Origin: Dictyostelium discoideum
Taxonomy: Eukaryota
DNA: 64,000 nucleotides
Assembly: GCA_000004695.1 (NCBI GenBank)
Contig: CM000151.3
Span: 3,680,001-3,744,000, forward strand
Direction: 5' to 3'
A program made the translations under genes and the position numbers. This document shows positions 13,112 to 13,450 of this stretch, piece after piece (the first letter of the stretch is position 1; every line of letters begins with the position of its first letter). The notes under the pieces are model-generated. The model searched no databases and was not told the origin of the DNA. It was given only the letters and a program-made list of their open reading frames with translations.

Positions 13112-13195
13112 ATAATAATAATTATAATAATGCATGTGAGTTTTAAAATGGTCTCTATTATTCCACTAATTTTTATATTGTGGTGCCTTTATACT

Positions 13196-13335
13196 ATTAC
13201 AACACCGTTATTCCTCTGTTAGAGGTGCCATTGTTTTACATTTTATATTACCAGAGGAATAATAGTGTTGTTATATAAAATATAAAACAATGACACCTCT
13301 AACAGAGGAATAACGGAGAGTAATATAAAATATAA
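13196..13335. ncRNA. Candidate structured ncRNA / long imperfect hairpin (arms ~40 nt, 2 mismatches) containing three copies of motif CAGAGGAATAA; DUSE-like CCCATAA element ~60 bp away on minus strand
   Basis: Arm 13205-13250 (CCGTTATTCCTCTGTTAGAGGTGCCATTGTTTTACATTTT) is the reverse complement of 13277-13322 apart from 2 transitions. On the minus strand at 13398-13406 is tCCCATAAg, an exact match to [AT]CCCA[CT]AA, the upstream element of Dictyostelium snRNA/Class-I RNA genes, positioned about 60 nt upstream of the hairpin's minus-strand 5' end. Confidence 0.35.
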
Positions 13336-13450
13336 AGAGTTTCTATTTTATTATAATTTATCTATATATTATATTCAATCTTTTAAGAAAAGCGCACTTA
13401 TGGGAAAAGAATAAAAAAATACGAAACTAGGACCGTTACCAAAAAAAAAA

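Follow-up and report, generated by a model that had tools for sequence, protein, structure and literature searches.

One of the intergenic miRNAs of Dictyostelium discoideum, ddi-mir-7104, is said to have been described by Avesson and colleagues in 2012. The miRNA genes of this organism are mostly intergenic hairpins, and their primary transcripts start at a G that follows a T-rich tract. [quoted passage not shown] All 17 miRNAs that were known earlier drop in a drnB knockout (Liao et al. 2018; PMC6161686). Table S3 of that study lists a predicted primary transcript for mir-7104 at chr2:2338372-2338767 (+) and a motif, TTTTTTTTTTTTTTGTTTTTTTTTG, with 26 nt between its end and the first poly(A) read. 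The published D. discoideum miRNA hairpins have folding energies of -0.43 to -0.73 kcal/mol/nt, and the published criteria for a miRNA ask for a folding energy below -0.2 kcal/mol/nt and for pairing of at least 60% (at least 16 nt) of the 21-nt duplex. In D. discoideum, miRNA modules are gained or lost whole, and a long, perfectly paired stem is read as the mark of a young miRNA (Edelbroek et al. 2024). How amoebozoan miRNA hairpins arise and vanish was stated in the same study as an open aim.

The stretch of D. discoideum DNA analysed here, called the window, is 64 kb long and extremely AT-rich. It contains a 970-bp spacer (12642-13611) between two plus-strand genes, a frizzled/smoothened-like ORF that ends at 12641 and a G-patch/TFIP11 homologue that starts at 13611. 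The initial annotation proposed a candidate Pol II/III non-coding RNA gene in this spacer, describing it as a long hairpin between two protein genes with no ORF of its own. This description of the setting was borne out, as the only ORFs that touch the hairpin region are short, low-complexity ones of at most 60 aa. The region also stands out from the surrounding spacer in base composition, as had been noted, with a GC content of 0.25-0.26 over 13100-13399 compared to 0.07-0.15 in the flanks. No tRNA genes were found within the 64-kb window and, thus, there is no Pol III or TRE context.

An inverted repeat with arms of 47 nt, which are 94% complementary and 18 nt apart, was confirmed in the spacer. 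The coordinates of this and the other features of the locus are given in Table 1. The initial annotation had described a long stem with two transition mismatches. This holds for the 44-bp core of the stem, which has exactly two, but the second arm had been placed at 13277-13322, about 6 nt too far to the right. On the minus strand both mismatches become G:U pairs, whereas the plus strand has C-A at these sites; the minus strand accordingly folds better (-82.8 kcal/mol, z = -12.7) than the plus strand (-70.6 kcal/mol, z = -8.3). None of the shuffled controls folded as well as the hairpin. Counting the two G:U pairs, the minus strand has 44 consecutive pairs. The extended hairpin on this strand reached -100.2 kcal/mol at 22 C, or -0.65 kcal/mol/nt. 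The motif CAGAGGAATAA was found exactly three times, as the annotation had it, at 13208-13218 (-), 13252-13262 (+, in the loop) and 13303-13313 (+); about 0.9 matches with at most one mismatch would be expected in 64 kb.

Table 1. Features of the hairpin locus, with positions in the 64-kb window
Feature	Position	Strand	Description
T-rich putative Pol II start motif of the primary miRNA transcript	13440-13482	-	T31, G (13451), T10, G (13440); matches the mir-7104 motif of Table S3
5' flank of the hairpin within the transcript	13334-13415	-	~80-nt block that includes the octamer; nearly identical in L004
Predicted primary transcript of mir-7104	13019-13414	-	396 nt; published chr2:2338372-2338767 (+) placed by the G13440 anchor; putative mapping
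DUSE-like octamer TCCCATAA	13398-13405	-	35 nt downstream of the putative start; 61-68 nt upstream of the extended-stem base; kept in L004
Extended hairpin, putative miRNA precursor	13185-13338	-	154 nt; inner stem near perfect, outer stem imperfect and bulged
5' arm of the stem (RNA sense)	13270-13316	-	inverted full copy of the 50-nt unit; nhmmer E = 9e-14, minus strand
Terminal loop	13249-13271	-	truncated inverted unit (first 23 nt); has the third CAGAGGAATAA; ends in the internal palindrome of the unit, CCTCTG/TTAGAGG
3' arm of the stem (RNA sense)	13205-13251	-	plus strand is the forward copy of the 50-nt unit (13199-13248); nhmmer E = 5e-17, plus strand
A46 run (T46 on the minus strand)	13068-13110		downstream of the hairpin, within the mapped primary transcript

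Upstream of the hairpin, the T-rich tract on the minus strand provides a link to mir-7104. The window contains a single exact copy of the 26-mer T14-G-T10-G, at 13440-13465 (-), and this copy is 124 nt upstream of the stem. Since T25-G tracts without interruption are frequent in the window, the specificity of the match comes from its interrupting G. The second T run of the motif has 10 T in the window, compared to 9 T in the PDF text of Table S3. The G at 13440 is the putative start of transcription, and the window was mapped to chromosome 2 by anchoring this G to chr2:2338346. With this mapping, the hairpin was predicted to lie at 2,338,470-2,338,581 in AX4 and was the only strong structure within the interval assigned to the primary transcript (13019-13414).

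The chromosomal position was then compared with an independent D. discoideum assembly, GCA_054883475.1. The hairpin region of this assembly is 100% identical to that of the window, and the whole spacer differs by two indels and no mismatches. The hairpin lies at about 2,352,064-2,352,175 of a 3.6-Mb contig, with the minus strand of the window corresponding to the plus strand of the contig. The predicted AX4 position is 13.6 kb off this coordinate and on the same strand, an agreement that presumes that the contig begins at the end of chromosome 2. The neighbouring gene is informative as well. AX4 has a stip/TFIP11 homologue ("septin and tuftelin-interacting protein 1 homologue") to which the ORF at 13739-16387 is 100% identical. 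This AX4 protein has two identical accession pairs on an 8.48-Mb record, which places the locus in the AX4-duplicated segment of chromosome 2. By this indirect comparison, the hairpin agrees with mir-7104 in position (within 14 kb in 2.34 Mb), in strand and in lying in the AX4-duplicated segment. AX3 and AX4 carry the stip/hairpin segment of chromosome 2 twice. Reads from the mir-7104 locus would map to two reference places and would be discarded by pipelines restricted to unique matches.

The structure of the hairpin was also compared with published miRNA precursors. The folding energy of the minus strand, -0.65 to -0.75 kcal/mol/nt (22 C), was counted as fitting D. discoideum miRNA precursors and lies below the published limit; the 44 consecutive pairs exceed the pairing asked of a 21-nt duplex, and a T-rich tract ending in G (T31-G-T10-G) precedes the primary transcript. 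Judged by position, strand and motif rather than by sequence, the hairpin is very probably the precursor of the published ddi-mir-7104. Searches with strings from the hairpin gave no match in the searchable paper texts or supplements. The two loci have in common chromosome 2, the strand, the position, the T14-G-T(9-10)-G motif and a hairpin inside the 396-nt interval, and no difference between them is known. In all likelihood, then, the feature is already known as the catalogued mir-7104 locus. The proposal of a Pol II/III non-coding RNA gene can be kept as far as a non-coding RNA with minus-strand sense is concerned, given the match to mir-7104; the DUSE-type class and the promoter logic that came with it are not supported. 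The D. discoideum miRNA set that Edelbroek et al. (2024) obtained with strict criteria does not include the mir-7104 locus, suggesting that its expression is probably low. As a gene, it offers nothing new, being a catalogued, species-restricted miRNA locus that is probably weakly expressed, and what it adds on the origin of hairpins is modest.

If the locus works like the D. discoideum miRNA genes studied so far, RNA polymerase II would start at the G after the long T tract (13440-13482, minus strand) and produce a primary transcript of ~400 nt, from about 13414 to 13019 (-). The part from 13338 to 13185 would fold into the 154-nt hairpin, with its inner 44 bp fully paired, including two G:U pairs. 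The nuclear Dicer-like protein DrnB and its partner RbdB would cut 21-nt duplexes from the stem, and the duplexes would then be loaded into an Argonaute. The stem itself is made of one forward and one inverted copy of a 50-nt minisatellite unit, with a truncated inverted copy serving as the loop.

A miRNA gene of the same kind is mir-1177, which is likewise an intergenic hairpin with a start at a G after 21-26 T and has a similar folding energy. Its primary transcript is a capped, DrnB-dependent Pol II product, which is proposed for the window hairpin by analogy. The two differ in that the stem of the window hairpin is longer and fully paired, and in that mir-1177 is conserved in group 4 species while the window hairpin module is not. 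mir-1177 was itself considered as the identity of the hairpin on the basis of its hairpin, A run and downstream gene. It was ruled out since it lies on chromosome 5 beside DDB_G0287713, where 26 T precede its start, 361 nt separate it from the next start codon and the downstream gene has the same orientation. None of the sequences listed for the new miRNAs of Liao et al. (2018), Meier et al. (2016) and Edelbroek et al. (2024) matches the hairpin. Another candidate, ddis_Cluster_1861, is a perfect duplex with -1.05 kcal/mol/nt and a loop of 102, and neither this energy nor this geometry fits. Several Rfam models below threshold (mir-3910, mir-4679 and others) scored on both strands, and these scores merely reflect a long perfect stem. 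Compared to the miRNA modules of Edelbroek et al. (2024), the hairpin is alike in having an unusually long stem with no or one mismatch, in being restricted to a species or strain and in being gained or lost as a whole module. It differs from them in its arms, which are units of a local 50-nt array and not copies of a target gene or a transposon. In a local search for targets, 21-mers from the hairpin matched only AT-rich low-complexity DNA elsewhere in the window. The 21-mer GTTATTCCTCTGTTAGAGGTG had no match in the bacterial or archaeal genome collections; its occurrence in two marine metagenome contigs was dismissed as a chance match to one coding-like sequence common to both.

A second allele of the spacer was found in GCA_054859385.1, an assembly labelled D. 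discoideum, at a locus designated L004. This locus has 93% DNA identity to the window over 6.3 kb and 95% protein identity in the neighbouring stip gene, with several indels. Differences of ~7% in DNA and 5% in protein seem far larger than would be expected between isolates of one species, and GCA_054859385.1 may represent a cryptic sister lineage. The L004 allele has no long inverted repeat. It carries 4.9 head-to-tail copies of a 50-nt unit, ACAACACCGTTATTCCTCTGTTAGAGGTGTCATTGTTTTATATTTTATAT, with 92% matches, and an additional degenerate copy of the unit on the left. Head-to-tail copies of a unit of 10-100 nt define a minisatellite, and the L004 array is of this form. A profile of the 50-nt unit (nhmmer) found three copies in the window, one forward (13199-13247), one full and inverted (13274-13318) and one truncated and inverted (13250-13271), and no further copy elsewhere in the 64 kb. 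No tandem array was detected in the window allele by TRF because two of the three unit copies are inverted. Also, each of the three CAGAGGAATAA motifs belongs to a copy of this 50-nt unit, so that they are not independent signals.

The two alleles could be related by an inversion. Re-inverting ~80-86 nt of the window allele restored colinearity with the direct array and raised the alignment score from 279 to 383. The breakpoints of this putative inversion are ambiguous (left 13247-13252, right 13326-13338), with the pairs from 13247/13326 to 13252/13338 scoring nearly alike, since the sequence at the junctions, TATATAAAATATA, is quasi-palindromic. The end of the truncated copy falls within the internal palindrome CCTCTG/TTAGAGG, which suggests that a template switch or breakage may have occurred at that small hairpin. 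One difference between the arms, TTTTACATTTT in one and TTTTATATTTT in the other, is common to different units of the L004 array. This single site gives a weak hint that each arm may derive from its own unit of an older array. At the place equivalent to the upstream start motif, L004 has a T17-AATTG tract, suggesting that transcription of the spacer may have preceded the hairpin.

The other species examined have neither form of the module. The orthologous spacer of D. citrinum, only 250 bp long, contains no 50-nt unit, octamer block or complex hairpin, and nothing of the hairpin module was found in the D. purpureum sequence. This absence matches the gain and loss of whole modules described by Edelbroek et al. 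(2024), and the pattern fits a young, fast-turnover miRNA. A plausible, if not quite probable, account is that the mir-7104 hairpin was born recently through an inversion of ~80-86 nt, roughly one and a half units, in a pre-existing 50-nt array within a transcribed spacer, with one breakpoint at CCTCTGTTAGAGG; the conserved DUSE might add a second start at the base of the stem. If the inversion did occur, this pair of alleles would document how a miRNA precursor arose from a minisatellite. The new observation here is that the stem comes from flipped copies of a 50-nt tandem repeat that is unflipped in a related isolate. The spacer exists in three states: without the module in D. citrinum, as a direct 50-nt array in the divergent isolate, and as one forward and two inverted units in AX4-type strains. 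These states offer a concrete, testable route for the rapid rise and loss of amoebozoan miRNA hairpins.

The L004 allele could also mean that the hairpin is a neutral structural variant, in which an inversion in a 50-bp tandem array happens to form a palindrome that is distinct from mir-7104 and lacks a transcript or function of its own. Besides the 4.9 direct copies and the missing hairpin in L004, such a variant would be consistent with the tendency of this spacer to change its repeats, the absence of the module in D. citrinum and the absence of the locus from the strict 2024 miRNA set. The lack of the hairpin in the divergent isolate likewise counts against a strongly selected function. The published mir-7104 locus, however, matches in position, strand and motif, and both mismatches of the stem form G:U pairs on the transcribed strand, though by itself such an outcome has a 1-in-2 chance. 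We consider a neutral variant of this kind very unlikely and a mir-7104 precursor the better description.

In the comparison of the spacer (12642-13611) with L004 (2087-3001), identity was mostly 24-80% per 50-nt bin, while the other spacers of this pair have 85-98%. The spacer is a hotspot of repeat change, with an (ATT)n tract at 12744-12850, the A46 run at 13068-13110 and A10-C-A31 at 13441-13482.

Another possible explanation of the palindrome is that it is the remnant of a foldback or MITE-like DNA transposon, with inverted ends that carry repeated binding motifs. The palindromic structure with its repeated short motifs has this appearance, the L004 array is flanked by a 20-nt inverted repeat with 80% complementarity, and D. 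citrinum lacks the module that D. discoideum has in full. A transposon of this type would be expected in many dispersed copies with terminal inverted repeats and target-site duplications. No other copy was found in the 64-kb window or in ~29 kb of D. citrinum and D. purpureum sequence, however, and no target-site duplication could be recognised. The L004 allele is, moreover, a plain head-to-tail array and not a foldback. Judged on the sequence covered, a transposon remnant is the least likely of the readings considered. The inverted repeat that flanks the whole array of L004 lies at 2400-2419 and 2690-2709 of that locus, and the window allele lacks the 18-nt stretch in which the left arm of this repeat falls.

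Each 50-nt unit contains the short palindrome CCTCTGTTAGAGG, for example at 13214-13226 of the window. TAACGG and TAACAG on the other strand of each unit presumably resemble Myb-type binding sites. With the stip start codon 300-400 bp downstream, an array of such Myb-like sites could be a cis-regulatory element.

The remaining cue in the spacer is the DUSE octamer. The initial annotation had reported an exact DUSE on the minus strand, about 60 nt upstream of the hairpin, and both parts of this report were reproduced: TCCCATAA is an exact match, and the base of the extended stem is 61-68 nt away. Only 3 DUSE octamers ([AT]CCCA[CT]AA) were found in the window, compared to 9.7 expected from shuffles, which argues that the octamer is not a random match in an AT-rich spacer. 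As an upstream promoter, however, the octamer fits poorly. With the putative mapping to chromosome 2, the first published poly(A) read of mir-7104 falls at about 13414, so that the octamer lies 9-16 nt inside the read coverage. Being within the published transcript and downstream of the putative start, it is probably not the promoter of the mir-7104 primary transcript. Comparison with the catalogued non-coding RNAs (Class I, snoRNA, SRP and snRNA) was negative for the hairpin region, with no Rfam match at gathering score, and the Class I motif CCTTACAGC (CCTTACAGC(A/C)A) was absent from the window even with one mismatch. The locus resembles the DUSE-dependent non-coding RNA genes (U1-U6 snRNAs, Class I/II) in having an exact octamer ~60-68 nt upstream of a structured RNA on the correct strand, and differs from them in that the octamer lies in a longer published transcript and that there is no Class I stem, CCTTACAGC or match to an snRNA or snoRNA model.

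It is possible that the DUSE drives a short transcript, made by Pol II or Pol III, that starts ~63 nt downstream at the base of the extended stem (about 13337). The product would be a pre-miRNA with a 5' end fixed by transcription initiation, or else a small structured RNA of an unrelated kind, and it could be made instead of the long transcript or beside it. The rarity of the octamer (3 in 128 kb of strand) agrees with such a role, as does the estimated chance of ~0.005 that a correctly oriented octamer would fall 40-90 nt from one or the other end of the hairpin. The distance to the stem base, 61-68 nt, is close to the published DUSE distances of ~60-63 nt, and the octamer is conserved in the divergent isolate. 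In the bin 13350-13399, the window and L004 share 49 matches, with 1 mismatch and a 5-nt indel. This conservation is weak evidence because ordinary spacers of the pair are also 85-98% identical, and the octamer block is no better conserved than these. The poly(A) reads of mir-7104 begin upstream of the octamer, and the D. discoideum primary miRNAs studied are capped Pol II transcripts that start after T tracts, with no DUSE reported for them. A Pol III transcript would be hindered by several T4 runs in the RNA, and L004 has a T5 run within ~20 nt of the predicted start. The absence of an Rfam family at gathering score and of the Class I motif also speaks against a short RNA of this kind. Taken together, a DUSE-driven short transcript is unlikely compared to the long mir-7104 primary transcript, and the octamer was probably a misleading cue when the locus was read from its letters.

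The other two DUSE octamers of the window are both on the minus strand. The second, ACCCACAA at 48088-48095 (-), is intergenic. About 55-60 nt downstream of it are GGTGATGA...CTGAccgaCTGA, which are box C / box D-like, followed by a (GTGA)n microsatellite. This element (47985-48095) had no Rfam match even at E<=1, and its minus strand could be a candidate for a small C/D-like RNA gene. The third, TCCCACAA at 45079-45086 (-), lies ~580 nt upstream of the ATG of a minus-strand ORF (42937-44499), and ~60 nt downstream of it is a complex stretch of ~25 nt that ends in T10 (45000-45086, minus strand).
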